A program made the position numbers and the translations under genes. Below are positions 9,797 to 27,237 of a stretch of DNA of 64,000 nt, piece by piece (the stretch's first letter is position 1; every line of letters starts with the position of its first letter). The stretch lies in contig CAVTAS010000008.1 of assembly GCA_963732765.1 (NCBI GenBank), positions 780,311 through 844,310 of the forward strand, read 5' to 3'. The stretch is from an uncultured Alphaproteobacteria bacterium (GTDB lineage Bacteria > Pseudomonadota > Alphaproteobacteria > Rhizobiales > Hyphomicrobiaceae). Under the pieces are notes generated by a model. It did no database searches and was not told the origin of the DNA. It saw only the letters and a list, made by a program, of their open reading frames with translations.

Positions 9797-10627
9797 ATGG
9801 CCCTTGACGATGTTCCGCTCGCCGAGCCGATGTCCCCTGGCGCCGAGCGTTTCAGCCGCGAAGCGCTCAAGCGCGGCGCCGCGCACAACGGCATCCTGCT
9901 GAGCTACGGCGACGATCCCATGCAGTCGATGCTGGTGTTTCCCGCCAAACGTCCGACCGGCCCAGTGCTGATCTTCTATCACGGCGGCAACTGGACCAAT
10001 GGTTCCAAGGATTGGTTCGCCTATCTCGCGCCCCTGCTGACTGCGCGCGGCATCACCTTCGTCAGCGTTGGCTATCGCCTTGCCCCGGGTGCGATGTTCC
10101 CGGTCGGCTGGGAGGATGCGCTCTACGGTTTCGACATCGCCGTGCGCAACATCGCCAAGTTCGGCGGCGATCCCAACCGGGTGTTCGTTTCCGGGCACGA
10201 TGCCGGCGCCCATTATGCCGCCCTGATGGCCTTGAAGGCCGGGTGGCGCGATGCGCTCTCCTTGCCGATGGATGTGGTCAAGGGCTGCCTGCCCATTTCC
10301 GGCTTCTACGATTTCGGCCCCAACGCCGGCTTTAAGAGCCGCCCGATGTTTCTGGGCATGCCCGAGCAGAAGGGCGAGCGTTACGCCTCCGCCATCCGCT
10401 ATGGCCATCCCAAAGCGCCGCCTTTCCTGGTCACCTATGGTTCGGACGACCTCCCCCATGCGCGCAGCCAGGGCCACGATTTCGTGCGCGCGCTGCGCCG
10501 CGAACACATGATGGCCGAGGAACTGGTGCTGGAAGGCCAGGACCATTTCGGCACGGCGCTGGCCATTGCCGAAGAAAACGGGCCCTGGATCGCCGCCGTC
10601 AACTGGATGACCGGTAACACCGGTTGA
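9797..10627 (+). CDS. Alpha/beta-hydrolase fold esterase/lipase
   Basis: HGGNW oxyanion motif and GHDAGAHYAA nucleophile-elbow-like motif; ends ...EGQDHFG. Confidence 0.7.
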   Translation: MALDDVPLAEPMSPGAERFSREALKRGAAHNGILLSYGDDPMQSMLVFPAKRPTGPVLIFYHGGNWTNGSKDWFAYLAPLLTARGITFVSVGYRLAPGAMFPVGWEDALYGFDIAVRNIAKFGGDPNRVFVSGHDAGAHYAALMALKAGWRDALSLPMDVVKGCLPISGFYDFGPNAGFKSRPMFLGMPEQKGERYASAIRYGHPKAPPFLVTYGSDDLPHARSQGHDFVRALRREHMMAEELVLEGQDHFGTALAIAEENGPWIAAVNWMTGNTG

Positions 10628-10700
10628 AGTGGTCTGGACGGATGCGGGCGATCTGAGGCAAATTACCCCCCGCTAGTCGCACCAACCGGGACGGTCCTCC

Positions 10701-11741
10701 ATGCGCATCGCAGCCGTGCTTGTCGCTATCCTGGCTCCAATCCTGAGCATCGCGTCGCCCGCAATTGCCGCCGACGACTGGGCGGCCTGCAAGAGCGACG
10801 ACTTCAAGGCCGTAGTCGCCAGCTGCAGCGCGCTCTTGAAGAAGGGCAAACTGAACCGTACGCAGACCATCGACGCGCTGACCAACCGCGCCTGGTCCTA
10901 TTACAACACCAACGACAACACCCTGGCGCTGGCCGACTACGCCGACTGCCTGAAGCGCGACGAGAACAACGTCACCTGCCTGAACGGCATGTCGGCCACC
11001 TATGTCGCGATGGAGTGGCACCCCGACGCCATCACTGTCGCCGACAAGGTGATCGCTCTCAATCCGCGCAATCAGTATGCCTACATCAACAAGGGCAATG
11101 CGCTGCACGCCACCTCGCGCTATCAGCAGGCGATCGAACAATACAACAAGGCGCTCGACGTGGCGCCCGGCTGGGTGCGCGCGTACTACCGCCGCGGCCG
11201 CTCCTTGAACGAGGTGGATCGCTACGAGGACGCCATCGCCGATTTCGACAAGGTGATGCTGATCGATCCCGAGTACACGCTGGCGTTGGGTGCGCGCGGC
11301 TACAGCCACCGCGTGCTCGGCCATCTCGACAAGGCGCTAGCCGATTTCAACGCCGCCACCGCTGCCGATGCCAAGGACGACTGGTCGTTCGTCGAGCGCG
11401 GCATGGTGCTGCTGCAGCGCAACGAGAATGAGAAGGCGCTGGCCGATTTCGACACCGGCATCTCGATGGCGCCGACGGTCACCTGGTACTACGGCCAGCG
11501 CGGCATCGCCCACTTCCGGCTAGGCAAGATCGAGGCCGCCAAGCAGGACTTCGAACGTGTTTTGAAGACCGTGAAAGACGACGCCATCGCGAACGTCCAT
11601 CTCGGCCAGATCTACCAGAAGGCCGGCAACACGGGCGCGGCCAAAGCATTCTACCGCGCCGCGATGATGGGCACGGTGTCCGACCCCGACACTCGCGAGG
11701 CACAGAAACAAGCGCTTAAACTGCTGGCGGCGGTGAAATAA
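10701..11741 (+). CDS. Secreted tetratricopeptide-repeat protein
   Basis: Signal peptide MRIAAVLVAILAPILSIASPAIAA followed by multiple TPR-like repeats (AY..RG......A..D...AL). Confidence 0.7.
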   Translation: MRIAAVLVAILAPILSIASPAIAADDWAACKSDDFKAVVASCSALLKKGKLNRTQTIDALTNRAWSYYNTNDNTLALADYADCLKRDENNVTCLNGMSATYVAMEWHPDAITVADKVIALNPRNQYAYINKGNALHATSRYQQAIEQYNKALDVAPGWVRAYYRRGRSLNEVDRYEDAIADFDKVMLIDPEYTLALGARGYSHRVLGHLDKALADFNAATAADAKDDWSFVERGMVLLQRNENEKALADFDTGISMAPTVTWYYGQRGIAHFRLGKIEAAKQDFERVLKTVKDDAIANVHLGQIYQKAGNTGAAKAFYRAAMMGTVSDPDTREAQKQALKLLAAVK

Positions 11742-14710: not shown

Positions 14711-16339
14711 CTACACCCTTGCCCGCTGCCGCCCAAACCGCGGCGCCTGCTCGAAGCGCGCGTGATCCTCGTCGGACTGCCAGCGGTCGTCGCCGCGCTG
14801 CGCTGACACGCCACCGTTCATCTGCGGAATGTTCGCTTGCTCGGCTGACCGCGGCACCGCCCCGGGGATACCACCCGTGAACCAGGCGTCGATCAGATCG
14901 ATCTCGTCGCTGGAGAGCTGCATGCCCTGGCTGCGGCAGCGCGCGATCACGAAGTTGCGGAAGCGTCCCGCAAACACCGCCGGCGACACGCCCTGCTCGA
15001 AGTAGGGATCGGCCTCGCGCACCACATCGATGACGAAGCGGATATCGTCGCGGCGCGGGTCGAAACCTTCGCGGCGGGCGCGCTTCAGCACGTTGTTGAC
15101 GGTGCTGTCGCCGTTGAAGGTGAACTCGCGCAGTTCGGCCGACAGCAGCTCGAACAGCATCTTGTATTCCGGCGGCGCCAACGGCGGGGCCTGGCAGGCC
15201 TCGTGGATCTTGGCCACCGACTGCTGCAGATGCTGGGCCGACGACTGCGCCAGGTTCTGCGTGCGTGGACGGGGCTGCAACGGCGCCGGCTCGGCCGGAC
15301 GGTCGATTTGACGCTTGGCCGGAGCGGCCTGCTGGCTGGCAACCTGCTGGCCGGCACGCGCTGGGGCGGGCTGCAGCGGCACCACGGTGGGCGCTTCGGC
15401 AACCGGAAGGTCGATCGGCGCCAGACGCTCCGGGCTGAAGATCATATAGGGCGGTTCGGCCGTGACCTGCAGACGTTCGGGCAGGTGCTGAGCCAGGAAA
15501 GCCTTGAAGCCTCCCGTGCCAGCCCAATTCGAGCCTGAGGTCCGCTCGCTGCCAAGCGCGCGCTGGACGCGATCGGCGACCGCTTCCATGGCCAGCGGCT
15601 TGTCCGCGACATCAACCGTGGCGACCACCACGGCGATGATATCAGCGGCGATAGCGGCCGTTTCGGCGTCATTGCCTTGCGCAGCGTCTTGCGCTGGCTT
15701 GGCAGCCTCGGCAGCCGCCGGGCGCGCTGTCTCGGATGCGCCAGACAGCGCCCCCTCGATCAGCATCTTGATGAAATCGCCTTCACGGATCTCACCATCG
15801 CAGATGGCGGTGTAAGGTGTCGCCGTGTGTTCGTTGGCGAAGATGACCGTCGAACGGGCATGGGCCCTCAGGCGCTGCAGTACCGGCGTGAAGTCGGCAT
15901 CGCCGGACAGGATGATGAACTCATCGAAACGCGTCTCGTGGGTGAGATAATCGCGCATGTCCATGACCATGCGGATGTCGGACGAATTCTTGAGCTGCGC
16001 GGTCAGCGGCGGGCAGTCGACGATCTCGAAGCCGGCGCGCAGGAAGTGGTGGCGCACGAACGGGAACGACGACATGTCGGTCGAGTTGTCGCGGGAATTG
16101 CGCCGTGGCACTGGATTGCCATAGCAGCGGCTCATCACGATGCGCCGCTCGCGCTTGACGCCGTTGCCATTGGTTGTGGTGATCAGCTGGCCCTGTTCGA
16201 TGGCCTTCAGCCAATGCACCGCATCCTTGGCGAAGCGGCGCGCCGCCTCCTCGTCTTTCCGCTTCAACGACAAGTAGATGTTGTCGTAGTCGACGAAGAT
16301 CGCGCTCAGGCACGGTCCGTCACTGTTCCTCGTCATCAC
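14711..16339 (-). CDS. NYN (LabA-like) nuclease-domain protein with a low-complexity linker and a C-terminal domain of unknown function (possibly OST-HTH/LOTUS)
   Basis: N-terminus ...LSAIFVDYDNIYLS...ILSGDADFTPVLQRL is a NYN/LabA signature. Central Ala/Pro/Gln-rich linker, then a structured C-terminal approximately 150 aa. Confidence 0.7.
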   Translation of the reverse strand: MMTRNSDGPCLSAIFVDYDNIYLSLKRKDEEAARRFAKDAVHWLKAIEQGQLITTTNGNGVKRERRIVMSRCYGNPVPRRNSRDNSTDMSSFPFVRHHFLRAGFEIVDCPPLTAQLKNSSDIRMVMDMRDYLTHETRFDEFIILSGDADFTPVLQRLRAHARSTVIFANEHTATPYTAICDGEIREGDFIKMLIEGALSGASETARPAAAEAAKPAQDAAQGNDAETAAIAADIIAVVVATVDVADKPLAMEAVADRVQRALGSERTSGSNWAGTGGFKAFLAQHLPERLQVTAEPPYMIFSPERLAPIDLPVAEAPTVVPLQPAPARAGQQVASQQAAPAKRQIDRPAEPAPLQPRPRTQNLAQSSAQHLQQSVAKIHEACQAPPLAPPEYKMLFELLSAELREFTFNGDSTVNNVLKRARREGFDPRRDDIRFVIDVVREADPYFEQGVSPAVFAGRFRNFVIARCRSQGMQLSSDEIDLIDAWFTGGIPGAVPRSAEQANIPQMNGGVSAQRGDDRWQSDEDHARFEQAPRFGRQRARV

Positions 16340-18478: not shown

Positions 18479-18979
18479 CTCGACGAAATCGCTGATCGAA
18501 CAGAGGTGGATGTTCGGGCTATCGTACCATTTGTACGGCAGGCTGCCGGTGACGGGCATCTGGCCATTGGTGAGAAAGCGCAGCCGGATCGCCCAATGGC
18601 CGAAATTCGGCAGCGAGACAATGGCGTGGCGGGCGATGCGTAACAGCTGCTCCATGACAAAGCGCGGATTGCGCGTGGCCTGAATGGTCAGGCTGAGGAT
18701 GGCGTAGTCGAAGGCATTGTCGGGATAGTTGGTGAGATCGGTATCGGCGTCGCCCTGGATCACCGACAGGCCGCGCGCCACGCAGTGGTTCACGCCCTCG
18801 CGGGAGATCTCGACGCCGCGGCCATCGACATCGCGGGTTTCGGCCAGCAGTTCCAGCAGATCGCCATCGCCGCAGCCGACGTCGAGCACACGGGCCTTGC
18901 GTGCCACCATCTCGGCGATCAGCAGGTGGTCGACGCGCTGTTTTTTCCGGCTGGCGGGGAGTGTTCCGTGCACGGTCAA
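18314..18979 (-). CDS. metW: Methionine biosynthesis protein MetW
   Basis: [15 protein letters not shown]... Lies downstream of metX with a 4-nt overlap. Confidence 0.85.
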
Positions 18980-20253
18980 ACCGCTCCTGCCTTGGGGGCG
19001 GGCAAGCCGCGCCGCCGCGCTGCCGCGTTGAGGAAGCCCGAAACCGTCGCCAGGAACTCCGGCTCATTGAGCAGGAAGGCGTCGTGGCCCTTGTCGCTTT
19101 CGATTTCCACAAAGCTGACGTTGGCTGCTACGGCGTTGAGGGCCTGCACGATCTGGCGGCTTTCGCGGGTCGGATACAGCCAGTCGCCGGTGAACGACAC
19201 CACGCAAAAGCGCGTCTGCGTGCCGGTCAGCGCGTTGGCCAGCTTGCCATCGAACTCGGCCGGCAGGTCGAAGTAGTCCATGGCGCGCGTGATGTAGAGG
19301 TAGGAGTTGGGATCGAAGCGGTCGACGAAGCCAAAGCCCTGGTGGCGCAAATAGCTCTCGACTTGGAAATCGGCATCGAACGAGAAGGTTTTCACCTCAC
19401 GCGCCTGCAGGTTGCGCCCGAACTTGCGGTGCAGCGCTTCCTCGGACAGATAGGTGATGTGCGCGGCCATGCGCGCTACGGCGAGGCCTTTGCGGGGTGT
19501 TGCGCCCTCTTCCAGGTAGCGCCCGCGCCGCCAATCGGGGTCTGCCATGACGGCCTGGCGGCCCACCTCATGGAACGCGATGTTCTGTGAGGAGTGGCGT
19601 GCAGCGGTCGCGATGGGCACAGCCGTAAACACGCGATCGCGGTACTTCGCCGCCCAATCGAGCACCTGCATGCCGCCCATCGAGCCGCCAATAACGCAGA
19701 ACAGGTCCTTGATGCCGAGGTAATCGATCAGCCGCACCTGCGCCCGCACCATGTCGGCGATAGTGATAACCGGGAAATCCAGCCCATATGGCTTGCCGGT
19801 TTTCGGGTTGAGCGAGGCCGGCCCCGAGGAGCCCATGCAACCGCCCAGGATGTTCGACGAGATGACGAAGTAGCGGTCGGTATCCACCGGTTTGCCGGGG
19901 CCGATCATGGTCGTCCACCAGCCCTCGCGGCCGGTTACTGGATTTTCGGAGGCGCAGTACTGGTCGCCGGTCAGCGCGTGGCAAACCAGCACCGCGTTGG
20001 TCCTGGGGGCGTTCAGCGTGCCGTAGGTCTTGTAGGCGATGGAAAACGGCCCGAGCGTCACGCCGCAGTCGAGCTGCAGCGGCCTGTCTTCAGGGAACGT
20101 AACGACCTCTCCCTCGCCGGGCAGCGGCGCCGAGCCATCCATCGGCCGGTCGCGCAGGGTCGTGCGCACGCCCTCGGCCACCACGTCCGGCCCGAGACTT
20201 GCCTGATCCTGACCCGCCAATTCCGTTCCGGCCTCCAAAGCAGTTGCGCCAGC
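18976..20253 (-). CDS. metX: Homoserine O-acetyltransferase
   Basis: ...GGSMGGMQ... alpha/beta-hydrolase nucleophile, full MetX profile. The track ORF extends to 20571 through a repeat element; the real start is the ATG at 20253 ([12 protein letters not shown]...). Confidence 0.85.
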
Positions 20254-20313
20254 GCTGTTCATGGCGGACGGGGGGGCGTTGTCAATAGGAGAGGTTGGCG
20301 AAATTCGCTCTGA

Positions 20314-20550
20314 CTCTCCTCTCCCCTTCGCCGCTTTTTTCGGCGAAGGGGAGAGGAGGCCGCGTCTCGCAGCGCGTTTCAGCGCAAGAGCCACGCGGCC
20401 GGTGAGGGGCAGCAGCTTGCACCGATCCTCGAGCCACGGTTGCGGAGCAAGCGGCCGCCCCTCACCTGTCGCTGATTCCTTCGCGCTGCCGCGCTCAGGG
20501 CGACATCCTCTCCCCTTCGCCGAAAAAAGCGGCGAAGGGGAGAGGAGGGC
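20314..20550. repeat. Hairpin-capped palindromic element, family B (terminal hairpins CTCTCCCCTTCGCC-loop-GGCGAAGGGGAGAGG plus a central CCTCACCTGTCGC/…CGGTGAGGGGC palindrome), copy 1
   Basis: The same ~225-bp architecture recurs at 27012-27237 and 33753-33968, with a variant at 35551-35687. Confidence 0.7.
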
Positions 20551-20635
20551 TCTGCCGCCGTTGAAACACATCAGTCAATACGACTACAACGGTCTGCAAT
20601 AGGTAAGACGTTTTACGTTGAAGGATCTCCACCCC

Positions 20636-22200: not shown

Positions 22201-22304
22201 GTGGGCGTGGTAAGTTTCGCGCTGGCTGCACGTAGACACCATCGGGGGCGACCTCTTGGCTGCCACAGCTGTGCTCAAGTACAAGGCCTTCCTGTCCTAC
22301 AGCC

Positions 22305-24461
22305 ATGCCGAACTCGCAGCGCGGCCGGCGGCTGCATCGCCAGCTTGAGGCCTATCGCATCGATCGCGATCTGGCCGGCCGTGTCACCGCCATGGGCGAG
22401 GTGCCGCGCCAGCTGCGTCCGATTTTCCGCGATCGCGACGAGTTCGCGGCCGGGGCGACGCTAACCGAGCAAACCATCGCGGCGCTCGATGCCTCGTCTG
22501 CGCTGGTGGTGCTGTGTACGCCATCATCGGCCAGAAGCGCCTATGTGAACAACGAGATCCGCCTGTTCCGCTCGCGCCATCCGGACCGCCCGGTGGTGCC
22601 GGTGATCGCGGCCGGGCAGCCCGATCATCCGATGGAGGAATGCTTTCCACCGGCCCTGCGCTTCGAGGTGACGCCGGACGGCGAAGTCAGTAACCGGCCG
22701 GTAGCTGTGCTGGCCGCCGATCTGCGCGATGTTGGCGATGGCGAGCAGCTGACGCTGGCCAAGGTGGTTGCGCGCCTCACGGGCTTCAGTACCGACGAGA
22801 TTTTCCGGCGCGAGCAACGTGCACAGCGCAAGCGGTTGCGCAATTGGATCGCTGGGCTATCGGTGGTGGCGCTGGGACTGGCCGGGCTTGCCGTCTGGGC
22901 CGAGATCAACCGCCGCGAGGCGGTGCATCAACGCGAGACAGCCGAGCGCAATTTCGCCATCGCCAAGCAGGGCGCCGACGGCCTGATTTTCCAGATCGCT
23001 CAGTCGCTGCGTAACGAAGAGGGCATGCGCACCGAGACTGTGCGCAAGATCCTCGGCGCGTCGGAAACCGTAATCGGCGAACTGGTCAAGAGTTCCGGCG
23101 AGAATTTCGATCTGCGCCGCAGCCAGGCCGCCATGCTGCTGGAGTTCGCCGACACCTATGCGTCCCAGGGCGACACCGCCCGTCAGGCTGAAGCGATCAG
23201 CAGCGGACTGACAATCATGCAGCGCCTGGTGGCGGCCGATCCCGCAAATGCCGGCTGGCGCAGCGATCTGGCGATAGCCCAGGCGAAGATGGGCGATCTG
23301 CACCTATTCCGGGGTGAGCGGTCCGAGGCGTTGACGTCCTACCGCACCAGCCTTGCCACGGTAGCAGGCCTTGCTGCCGCCGATCCTTCCGATGGCCAAT
23401 TGCAGCATCAACTGGCCGGCGCACACGACCGGGTGGCCAACATACTGCTGCAGCAGAGCCAGCGCGGCGAGGCGCGCCAAGAGTACGAGCAAAGCCGAAC
23501 CATCCTTGAACGCCTGAATTCGGCTGTTAATCCGACCGTCGTCTGGCAGCGCGATCTTGCGGTCGCCTATCAGAAGCTCGGCGAGATGCTTCAGGGCGAC
23601 AAGCAGTTTGCGGGTGCGATCACTCAGTACCGCAAGGGACTCGCAACCTTCCAGCGCCTATCGGCGGACGACCCCAGCAACGCGCGCTGGCAGCACGATG
23701 TCGCCAGCTCCCGCAGCAAGCTGGGTGACGTGCTCGACGCCGATGGCCAGAAAACGGAGGCGTCGCAGCAGTTCCAGGCTAGTTTTGAAGCGCTGCAAAA
23801 GCTCGTGACATCCGATCCGACAAACACCGACCGCCAGTTCGATCTCTCGGTGGCCCGTGAGCGGCTGGCCGGGGCCGCACTCGATAACGGCGACAAAGTC
23901 AAAGCGTTGAAACTGTTTCGCGACAACCTCGCTGCGATTATGCCGTTACGCGACCGCGACCCCAAGAACGTCATGTTTCAACGCTCGGTCGGATTCGCGC
24001 TGCGCCGGCAGGGCGAGATTCTGGTGTCGGCAGGCAACACCGCCGCAGCTCGCAAGAGCATAGAGGACAGTCTCGCGATCGCCCGGGTGCTCGTCAGCGT
24101 CGACCACGCCAATGTGCGCTGGCAGGAAGATCTGGCGCTGGTGTTGAATGAGCTGGCGCCGTTGCAGGCTGGCGCCGGGGACGCAGAGGGAGCGCTGGCG
24201 AGCCTGCGTGAGAGCCTCGCTGTCGCCGAGCGTCTGGCCAAGACCGAACCGCAGGATGCCGACCGGCAAGGCACGCTCGCGACCAGCTATGCGTCCCTCG
24301 GCGTGCAGCTGATTACGATGGGCCGCAGCGACGAAGGGCTAGCCATGATGAAGAAGGCAAAGGCCGCCGGGGCGGTGAAAACTGCTAAGGCGCCGGACGA
24401 TGCCAAGTTCAAGACGTTCGCCGACAAAGTCGAGAGCATCTTGCAGCTGATGGAGCCCTAG
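22305..24461 (+). CDS. TIR-domain / single-TM / TPR-repeat protein. The first beta-strand of the TIR domain (…KYKAFLSYSHAE) is encoded in another frame from about 22271, so there is an apparent frameshift.
   Basis: TIR-like block: RRLHRQLEAYRI…IFRDRDEFAAGATLTEQTIAALDASSALVVLCTPSSARSAYVNNEIRLF. Then RKRLRN-WIAGLSVVALGLAGLAVWAEI (TM, positive-inside). Then at least 8 tandem ~42-aa repeats of the DPxNxxWQxDLAxAxxKLGD type. Confidence 0.7.
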   Translation: MPNSQRGRRLHRQLEAYRIDRDLAGRVTAMGEVPRQLRPIFRDRDEFAAGATLTEQTIAALDASSALVVLCTPSSARSAYVNNEIRLFRSRHPDRPVVPVIAAGQPDHPMEECFPPALRFEVTPDGEVSNRPVAVLAADLRDVGDGEQLTLAKVVARLTGFSTDEIFRREQRAQRKRLRNWIAGLSVVALGLAGLAVWAEINRREAVHQRETAERNFAIAKQGADGLIFQIAQSLRNEEGMRTETVRKILGASETVIGELVKSSGENFDLRRSQAAMLLEFADTYASQGDTARQAEAISSGLTIMQRLVAADPANAGWRSDLAIAQAKMGDLHLFRGERSEALTSYRTSLATVAGLAAADPSDGQLQHQLAGAHDRVANILLQQSQRGEARQEYEQSRTILERLNSAVNPTVVWQRDLAVAYQKLGEMLQGDKQFAGAITQYRKGLATFQRLSADDPSNARWQHDVASSRSKLGDVLDADGQKTEASQQFQASFEALQKLVTSDPTNTDRQFDLSVARERLAGAALDNGDKVKALKLFRDNLAAIMPLRDRDPKNVMFQRSVGFALRRQGEILVSAGNTAAARKSIEDSLAIARVLVSVDHANVRWQEDLALVLNELAPLQAGAGDAEGALASLRESLAVAERLAKTEPQDADRQGTLATSYASLGVQLITMGRSDEGLAMMKKAKAAGAVKTAKAPDDAKFKTFADKVESILQLMEP

Positions 24462-27011: not shown

Positions 27012-27237
27012 CCCTCTCCCCTTCGCTTTTTCTGCGAAGGGGAGAGGAGACCGCGTCTCGCAGGCGCCATTTTGCGCCAACAGCCACGCGGTCGGTGAAG
27101 GGCAGCAGCTTGTAGCTCTGCCTTTGAGCCCTGTACGGAGCAAGCGGCTGCCCCTCACCTGTCGCTATCTCCCTCGCGCTGACGCGCTTCGGGGCGACAT
27201 CCTCTCCCCTTCGCCGAAGAGGCGAAGGGGAGAGGAG
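27012..27237. repeat. Family B hairpin-capped palindromic element, copy 2
   Basis: CCTCTCCCCTTCGC…GGCGAAGGGGAGAGG termini. High identity to copy 1 internally. Confidence 0.7.

Follow-up and report, generated by a model that had tools for sequence, protein, structure and literature searches.

The locus and its TIR-TPR gene

The 64,000-nucleotide stretch of an uncultured Hyphomicrobiaceae bacterium analysed here (contig CAVTAS010000008.1, positions 780,311 to 844,310; hereafter the window) carries, at positions 22256-24461, one representative of a gene that is widespread in Alphaproteobacteria and encodes a bitopic protein of the inner membrane. [quoted passage not shown] As the first-pass annotation had stated, the gene follows tyrC and chaC and is convergent with npr: it lies 55 nt past the chaC stop, and downstream come the convergent HPr gene (identified with Pfam), EIIA-Man and an acyl-CoA synthetase gene. 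The features of the gene are as follows, with approximate residue numbers referring to the frame-corrected protein.

22256-22309, plus strand: 5' part of the gene, still in the original frame, with a TTG start; codons 1-18 read MAATAVLKYKAFLSYSHA on translation of the frame and include TIR strand betaA and the invariant S-Y-S-H motif
22280-22790, plus strand: TIR domain, residues ~9-178, with the BB-loop motif FRDRDEF..G and the candidate catalytic glutamate E100
22305-24461, plus strand: uninterrupted open reading frame (ORF) of 718 aa from the ORF list, without strand betaA; its ATG is in the downstream frame only owing to the insertion
22310-22313, plus strand: site of a one-base insertion, GAAC against GAT/GAC in the orthologues (codon D19), the single gap in a DNA alignment with two orthologous loci (L001 and L002)
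22806-22901, plus strand: Arg-rich juxtamembrane stretch RREQRAQRKRLRN, then the single TM helix W197-A215 (22845-22901), from hydropathy and charge bias
22902-23135, plus strand: predicted periplasmic juxtamembrane helical region, residues ~216-293, with two less regular hairpins in the full-length AlphaFold2 model
23136-24431, plus strand: about nine TPR-like helical hairpins of 48 residues each in tandem array, spanning residues ~294-725, from autocorrelation, Pfam, AlphaFold2 and Foldseek
24458-24461, no strand: CTAG, where the TAG stop of the TIR gene (24459-24461) overlaps the stop of the convergent HPr gene (24458-24460, minus strand), from the sequence and the ORF coordinates

With their stop codons sharing the palindrome CTAG, the TIR and HPr genes abut without a spacer, which leaves no space for a terminator between them. 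A promoter and terminator consensus scan gave nothing informative on the plus strand, and no second paralogue was found within the window.

A one-base insertion interrupts the reading frame

A change of frame separating the first TIR strand from the remainder of the protein had been noted previously, and this part of the observation holds: the upstream frame reads KYKAFLSYSHAE, one nucleotide off register from the 718-aa ORF, and translates from TTG 22256 or GTG 22271 as (MAATA)VLKYKAFLSYSHAELAARPAAASPA before a TGA stop at 22346-22348. The fault had, however, been placed within CGGCCGGCGG (22322-22331), to be repaired by deleting one G, whereas the surplus base maps to 22310-22313. The closest homologue (P0001), a protein of 734 aa, shares 67% identity over 100% of the query, and its locus has the same gene order (metX-like hydrolase, prephenate dehydrogenase, ChaC, TIR gene) in two independent assemblies. 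DNA alignment of the syntenic loci leaves a lone one-base gap, with GCCGAACTCG in the window set against GCCG-ATTCG in the orthologue. Removing one A converts GAA-C to GAC, gives the local reading SYSHADSQRGRRLHRQ against SYSHADSRRGVRLHRQ in the orthologue, and brings back D19, which is invariant in 116 of 116 homologues; the corrected protein then reads FLSYSHADSQRGRRLHRQLEAY where the orthologues have SYSHADSRRGVRLHRQLEAY.

Profile scores follow the same order. Against a gathering cut-off of 28 bits, the Pfam family TIR_2 (PF13676) scores 26.1 bits on the ORF as it stands, 32.1 after the G deletion and 39.8 after removal of an A at 22311/22312, while ThsB_TIR (cut-off 21.2 bits) rises from 16.9 through 17.9 to 23.8, clearing its threshold by a small margin. 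The G deletion is ruled out by the orthologue DNA alignment, the invariant D19 and the higher TIR_2 score. A programmed frameshift was also rejected, because the orthologues read the same codons unshifted, and no slippery motif was seen in the sequence. The gene likely starts at TTG 22256 rather than at GTG 22271 as first annotated, judging from its alignment with the called start of the closest orthologue and a purine-rich GGGGG 7 nt upstream; read from this codon, the corrected gene encodes 734 aa, the same length as the two closest orthologues. The 718 downstream codons are intact and have normal codon-position composition (GC content at third positions, GC3, of 0.78, the same as in the neighbouring genes), which leaves two explanations for the extra A, an error of assembly or a mutation of very recent date.

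The TIR domain

Profile search of the corrected protein supports the TIR identity proposed in the first-pass annotation, with both TIR_2 and the ThsB-type model above their cut-offs. The domain has the flavodoxin-like alpha/beta fold of TIR domains: residues 1-235 of an orthologue, 83% identical to the window in this region, were modelled by AlphaFold2 from a 22-sequence alignment with a mean predicted local distance difference test (pLDDT) score of 86.5. Means over 10-residue blocks were mostly 84-96 in this intact domain (one block, 62), as against about 44-88 in the truncated TIR portion of the window ORF. The module is highly conserved across the family and is marked by three motifs: SYSH-D follows strand A, FRDRxDFxxG lies in the BB-loop region, and helix C begins with VNEE[IV]RLF. 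Residues F12, S14, Y15 and H17, together with D19, F57-R58-D59-R60 and G66, are conserved in 115-116 of the 116 homologues.

The candidate catalytic residue, E100 (codon GAG, 22554-22556; SAYVNNEI in the window), is the second Glu of the VNEE[IV]RLF motif and is kept in 113 of the 116 homologues (97%). It aligns without gaps to TLR2 (SEWCKYEL) and with a 3-residue alignment offset to L6 (SKWCLMEL), in a column that we take to be the catalytic Glu position of enzymatic TIR domains. In the model of the orthologue domain it lies in helix 95-107, after strand 83-87. Alignment and conservation thus place E100, as a candidate, at the catalytic-Glu position at the start of helix alphaC (the S-x-W-C-x-x-E-L region), in agreement with the first-pass proposal, and suggest that the TIR domain is probably catalytic.

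A phmmer search of the whole ORF against PDB sequences gave no match, and the family profile gave weak TIR matches only. Among the PDB entries, an 824-aa chain named 'Tetratricopeptide repeat protein' (9m0n / 9umd) matched the family TIR profile weakly, at E = 0.04, across residues 32-110 of the chain. This may be the solved structure of a bacterial TIR-TPR protein, and a literature search gave no paper for the entry. An hhalign comparison of the family profile with a SARM1 TIR sequence returned a meaningless 14-column match and was discarded.

A single signal-anchor helix

Residues 184-215 comprise the Arg-rich stretch and the only hydrophobic helix of the protein, WIAGLSVVALGLAGLAVWA, with a mean Kyte-Doolittle value of 1.97 over 19 residues and its maximum at residue 197; AlphaFold2 modelled the segment as one long helix. 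Nearly all of the top 120 homologues have a TM helix at about residue 197, and its flanks are strongly asymmetric, with a mean of 7.19 K+R in the 15 residues on the N-terminal side versus 2.05 on the C-terminal side (116 homologues; N side richer in 115). A single helix with a positive-inside bias and no N-terminal signal peptide is the pattern of a type II signal anchor. By the positive-inside rule, the TIR domain would be cytoplasmic and everything past the helix, including the repeats, would be periplasmic. The TIR-TM-TPR topology first proposed is therefore upheld, and none of the three absences that could have spoken against it (of a TIR match, a Glu at the catalytic-motif position or a TM helix) was encountered.

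A long TPR-like repeat array

The repeats had been described as spaced by about 42 aa, and their period is in fact 48 residues. DPxNxxWQxDL anchors recur every 48 residues (at 328, 376, 424, 472, 520, 568, 616 and 664), and BLOSUM autocorrelation peaks at lags of 48 (0.79) and 96 (0.81), where the best value over all lags in 200 shuffles was -0.26. The TPR identity given to the repeats was borne out by three Pfam families, all over cut-off (TPR_12, 47.9 bits; TPR_10, 44.2; TPR_2, 32.8), and by structure prediction. AlphaFold2 modelled the window ORF with a pLDDT of 85 overall and above 90 in the repeats, and placed 22 helices, each about 20 residues long and paired as 11 hairpins, over residues ~216-734; Foldseek matched the repeats to OGT, LGN/Pins and designed consensus-TPR superhelices (E-values of 1e-10 to 1e-8). 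Profile matches and a helical-hairpin superhelix thus identify the array as TPR, and with a period of 48 rather than the canonical 34 residues the repeats are a long TPR-like variant. No match to PF20308 was obtained in the Pfam scan, so the repeats are not of the TPR-S type.

Family size and distribution

The architecture is not rare and has thousands of members in sequence databases. A word-indexed search gave more than 1,100 matches at E<=1e-5; of the top 120, nearly all combine TIR_2 with TPR families. With a profile built on the TIR+TM module, a search of 1.84 billion 50%-identity representatives gave 18,498 proteins at E<=1e-3, 12,618 at <=1e-10 and 5,377 at <=1e-30. In contigs sampled at one genome per species, relatives are encoded by at least 527 stretches, the majority of them from Alphaproteobacteria (Hyphomicrobiales, Caulobacterales/Phenylobacterium, Sphingomonadales and Kordiimonas), with a few from Gamma- and Betaproteobacteria, and two paralogues occur in several metagenome-assembled genomes. 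Homologue lengths range from about 560 to 1,128 aa, with the N-terminal module 45-63% identical throughout; judged by these comparisons, the TIR module of the family is conserved and the repeat region varies.

The earlier statement that this is not a described system stands in part. We found no description of a membrane-anchored or periplasmic bacterial TIR-TPR architecture in a literature search that did not extend to two surveys from the Aravind laboratory, yet such proteins are common in databases under generic names, either 'tetratricopeptide (TPR) repeat protein' or 'toll/interleukin-1 receptor domain-containing protein'.

Neighbourhoods of homologues

ORFs were called in 75 homologous loci and their neighbours clustered, and no gene family generally accompanies the TIR-TM-TPR gene. 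The window agrees with the first-pass view that the locus has no partner gene, its neighbours being chaC on one side and HPr and EIIA-Man on the other, with no match in PADLOC.

One subfamily differs from this pattern. In about 10 loci from Phenylobacterium and other Caulobacterales and from Sphingomonadales (L051, L052, L056, L063, L064, L066, L067, L071, L072 and L074), the TIR gene is directly preceded, on the same strand and at a gap of 4-13 bp, by a gene for a PEP-CTERM exported protein, and a convergent gene encodes a Pfam TPR-S ('TPR sensor') domain together with a class III nucleotidyl cyclase (for example in L064, 6807-7949 on the plus strand and 9901-11739 on the minus strand). The association is confined to about 10-12 of the 75 loci, and no such partner genes were found in the 64 kb of the window (tblastn for TPR-S/cyclase). 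This neighbourhood may represent a TIR-to-TPR-S signalling module, and the TPR-S-cyclase neighbour is circumstantial support for the production of a signal by the TIR domains of the family.

Separately, a 614-aa ORF (L069:10486-12330, plus strand) is found two genes downstream of a Sphingomonas homologue. Several hydrophobic segments occur in the C-terminal half of this ORF, and its N-terminal half appears SLOG-like by eye alone.

Other features of the window

A palindromic repeat element of about 230 bp is present in two copies (20316-20547 and 27013-27235), 6.69 kb apart in direct orientation and flanking the tyrC-chaC-TIR gene-HPr-EIIA-acs segment. Each copy is bounded by CCTCTCCCCTTCGC hairpins, a motif with 8 occurrences in the window against 0.03 expected, and one such hairpin occupies the same metX-tyrC spacer in the orthologous locus (L001:6167-6207). 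The element looks like a lineage-specific intergenic element of the repetitive extragenic palindrome or miniature inverted-repeat transposable element kind. The metX-like alpha/beta-hydrolase ORF at 18976-20571 (minus strand) is 531 aa long versus 450 aa in the orthologous locus, and because its N-terminal extension crosses the palindromic element, its true start is probably further downstream. At 14711-16339 (minus strand), a 542-aa protein carries at its N-terminus an NYN domain, a predicted RNase (Pfam, 71.8 bits), and its remainder is without a Pfam match.

Comparison with known systems

The nearest described kinds are TIR-II (PMC11350192), the BcTir/BcTpr pair (bioRxiv 10.1101/2023.05.26.542521) and the actinobacterial 'group 6' proteins (PMC7075850), and the accessible portions of these reports mention no membrane-spanning form. 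TIR-II of E. coli is a single TIR+TPR protein with antiphage activity that needs its TIR active-site residues; TIR-II is reported as the most abundant and most widespread of the new TIR systems, with an ATPase domain in about 30% of cases (PMC11350192). Compared by described domains, the present protein resembles TIR-II in having TIR and TPR in one polypeptide with no obligatory partner, but differs in the TM helix between them, by which the repeats should face the periplasm, whereas the accessible description of TIR-II mentions no membrane anchor. A fused TIR+TPR protein is an already validated antiphage kind (PMC11350192), and the new element here is the membrane-spanning arrangement only.

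Group 6 proteins and FxsC similarly combine an N-terminal TIR domain with many C-terminal TPRs in more than 700 aa, but group 6 has other betaA and BB-loop consensus patterns, and no TM helix is described for either (PMC7075850). Against the FxsC model (NCBIfam NF040588), our protein scored 34.6 bits, below the cut-off of 130. Likeness to Thoeris ThsB and to BcTir/BcTpr is found in the ThsB_TIR match and in the adjacent TPR-S gene of one subfamily, which echoes a TIR-to-TPR relay; in those systems, however, the TPR is on a cytosolic effector or receptor within a two-gene operon. No adjacent effector gene, whether ThsA or another signal-activated effector, was found in the window, and the locus is thus not a Thoeris system.

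The resemblance to Toll-like receptors drawn in the first-pass annotation is retained for its topological logic alone, that of an outside repeat, a TM helix and an inside TIR domain. The order is inverted, with the TIR domain N-terminal (type II), the repeats are TPR-like and not leucine-rich, and a Glu of the enzymatic-TIR type is kept; the resemblance is one of analogy, and nothing suggests common descent of the whole architecture. SARM1 offers a working analogy as a repeat-regulated TIR NADase. Unlike our protein, however, SARM1 (taken here with TIR-1) places no membrane between sensor and enzyme; it is either soluble or associated with mitochondria, and carries ARM repeats together with SAM domains for octamerisation.

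Proposed mechanism and alternatives

The protein would thus comprise an N-terminal cytoplasmic TIR domain with a catalytic-type Glu, one signal-anchor helix and a C-terminal superhelix of about 500 aa reaching into the periplasm. A ligand outside the cytoplasm, once bound by the repeat solenoid, would change the oligomeric state of the protein, and this change would pass through the single helix to bring the cytosolic TIR domains together as an active assembly. Clustering is the established mode of activation of other TIR enzymes. The assembly would then cleave NAD+, resulting in its depletion or in an ADP-ribose-derived signal. We lean slightly towards this overall mechanism, in which an extracytoplasmic sensor drives cytosolic NAD+ cleavage; the NADase activity, the ligand-induced oligomerisation, the periplasmic location and the biological role are inferred. 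That role could lie in defence, against phages or stress, or in regulatory signalling. Immunity is suggested because it is the usual work of bacterial TIR proteins and has a precedent in E. coli TIR-II.

Several observations weigh against this interpretation. PADLOC returned nothing for the protein, and the 126 immediate neighbours (±1, about 70 loci) gave singleton PADLOC matches only, with a long Pfam list of unrelated housekeeping functions. The orthologue keeps its core-genome position, and GC and GC3 equal those of neighbouring genes, unlike typical mobile defence genes; recent horizontal acquisition is accordingly not supported. Relatives of the TIR+TM module occur in 8 of 72,556 plasmid records, six of these being non-mobilizable and most very large replicons, and in no phage record. 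Two of the 116 homologues have Val at the E100 position, the window copy is frameshifted and may be inactive, and the literature search yielded no enzymatic, topological or phenotypic data for any family member. Together, the neighbourhoods, the rarity on plasmids and the absence from phage records do not fit the pattern of a typical mobile defence gene, and the abortive-infection role implied in the first-pass annotation is not backed by context. The housekeeping contexts, vertical inheritance and PEP-CTERM/TPR-S-cyclase association are no less compatible with a regulatory role than with immunity.

Those same contexts, with conserved synteny, native base composition and rarity in mobile elements, are what a non-immune transmembrane signal-transduction family would be expected to display, and the closely spaced PEP-CTERM gene and facing TPR-S/class III cyclase gene of the subfamily look like a sensory relay. 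On this account, the periplasmic repeats would monitor the state of the envelope or of exported proteins, and the TIR domain would make a nucleotide second messenger for separately encoded receptors, thereby regulating physiology without killing the cell. We judge it possible but doubtful, since characterised bacterial TIR enzymes act in defence, as far as the accessible literature describes them, paralogue expansion and variable repeats are typical of immune receptors too, and the relay-like association is limited to a minority of loci and is absent from the window. It is improbable that the TIR domain is instead a non-catalytic oligomerisation or adaptor module, as in animal Toll-like receptors and MyD88, within a structural or scaffolding component of the envelope. 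Periplasmic TPR proteins are often scaffolds, and the protein has a weak NCBIfam match to the Tgl lipoprotein, but the Glu at the catalytic-motif position is near-universal in the family, the BB-loop FRDR is invariant, the ThsB_TIR model is passed, and the neighbours of homologues include no conserved cytosolic partner that carries a TIR or a death-like domain. Still less probable is the sensor half of a Thoeris-like two-gene system with an adjoining effector: the ThsB_TIR score and the TPR-S-containing neighbour of some relatives point that way, but the window neighbours are chaC and HPr/EIIA, PADLOC gave no match, and within the 64 kb tblastn found neither a TPR-S homologue nor an effector of the SIR2, SLOG, Macro or TM kind.

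The alternative to which we give the most weight concerns this genome alone, namely that the extra A is real, that the gene is a genuine recent pseudogene and that functional TIR protein is not made; we regard this as nearly an even prospect. The frame is broken at codon 19, the 5' frame soon ends, the sole long ORF begins past strand betaA and falls under the TIR_2 threshold, its TIR part is modelled at lower confidence, and the orthologues have no such shift, so that it is not a programmed one. Against this, the 718 remaining codons are intact with full-length homology and an unaltered GC3, and any inactivation must be very recent. Single-base indels are also a common error of long-read assemblies. 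A full-length product arises from the window copy only if the extra A is such an error; if the insertion is real, the copy is a very recent pseudogene or, at best, encodes a protein without strand betaA. In either case, the gene is a frameshifted or mis-assembled member of the family, and its annotation can be corrected precisely.

Implications

Characterised bacterial TIR systems are described, in the accessible parts of the literature, as responding to phage proteins or to infection inside the cell. If the proposed mechanism is true, a TIR enzyme wired to a periplasmic repeat sensor would extend TIR signalling to cues outside the cytoplasm and would be an independent bacterial example of the receptor logic of animal Toll-like receptors. 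A bolder and rather unlikely reading, which we offer tentatively, is that the family is a bacterial functional counterpart of Toll-like receptors, in which the periplasmic solenoid senses a cue and the cytosolic TIR domains assemble into an NAD+-cleaving, signal-producing state. Candidate cues would be phage entry machinery, envelope damage or the exported PEP-CTERM protein, and in some lineages the output might be read by the adjacent TPR-S-cyclase. If true, this would be, as far as our literature search shows, the first TIR-based transmembrane signalling pathway described in bacteria. Ultimately, a large family with thousands of representatives, mainly in soil and water Alphaproteobacteria and in core-genome contexts, may reveal a role for TIR domains beyond classical defence islands.

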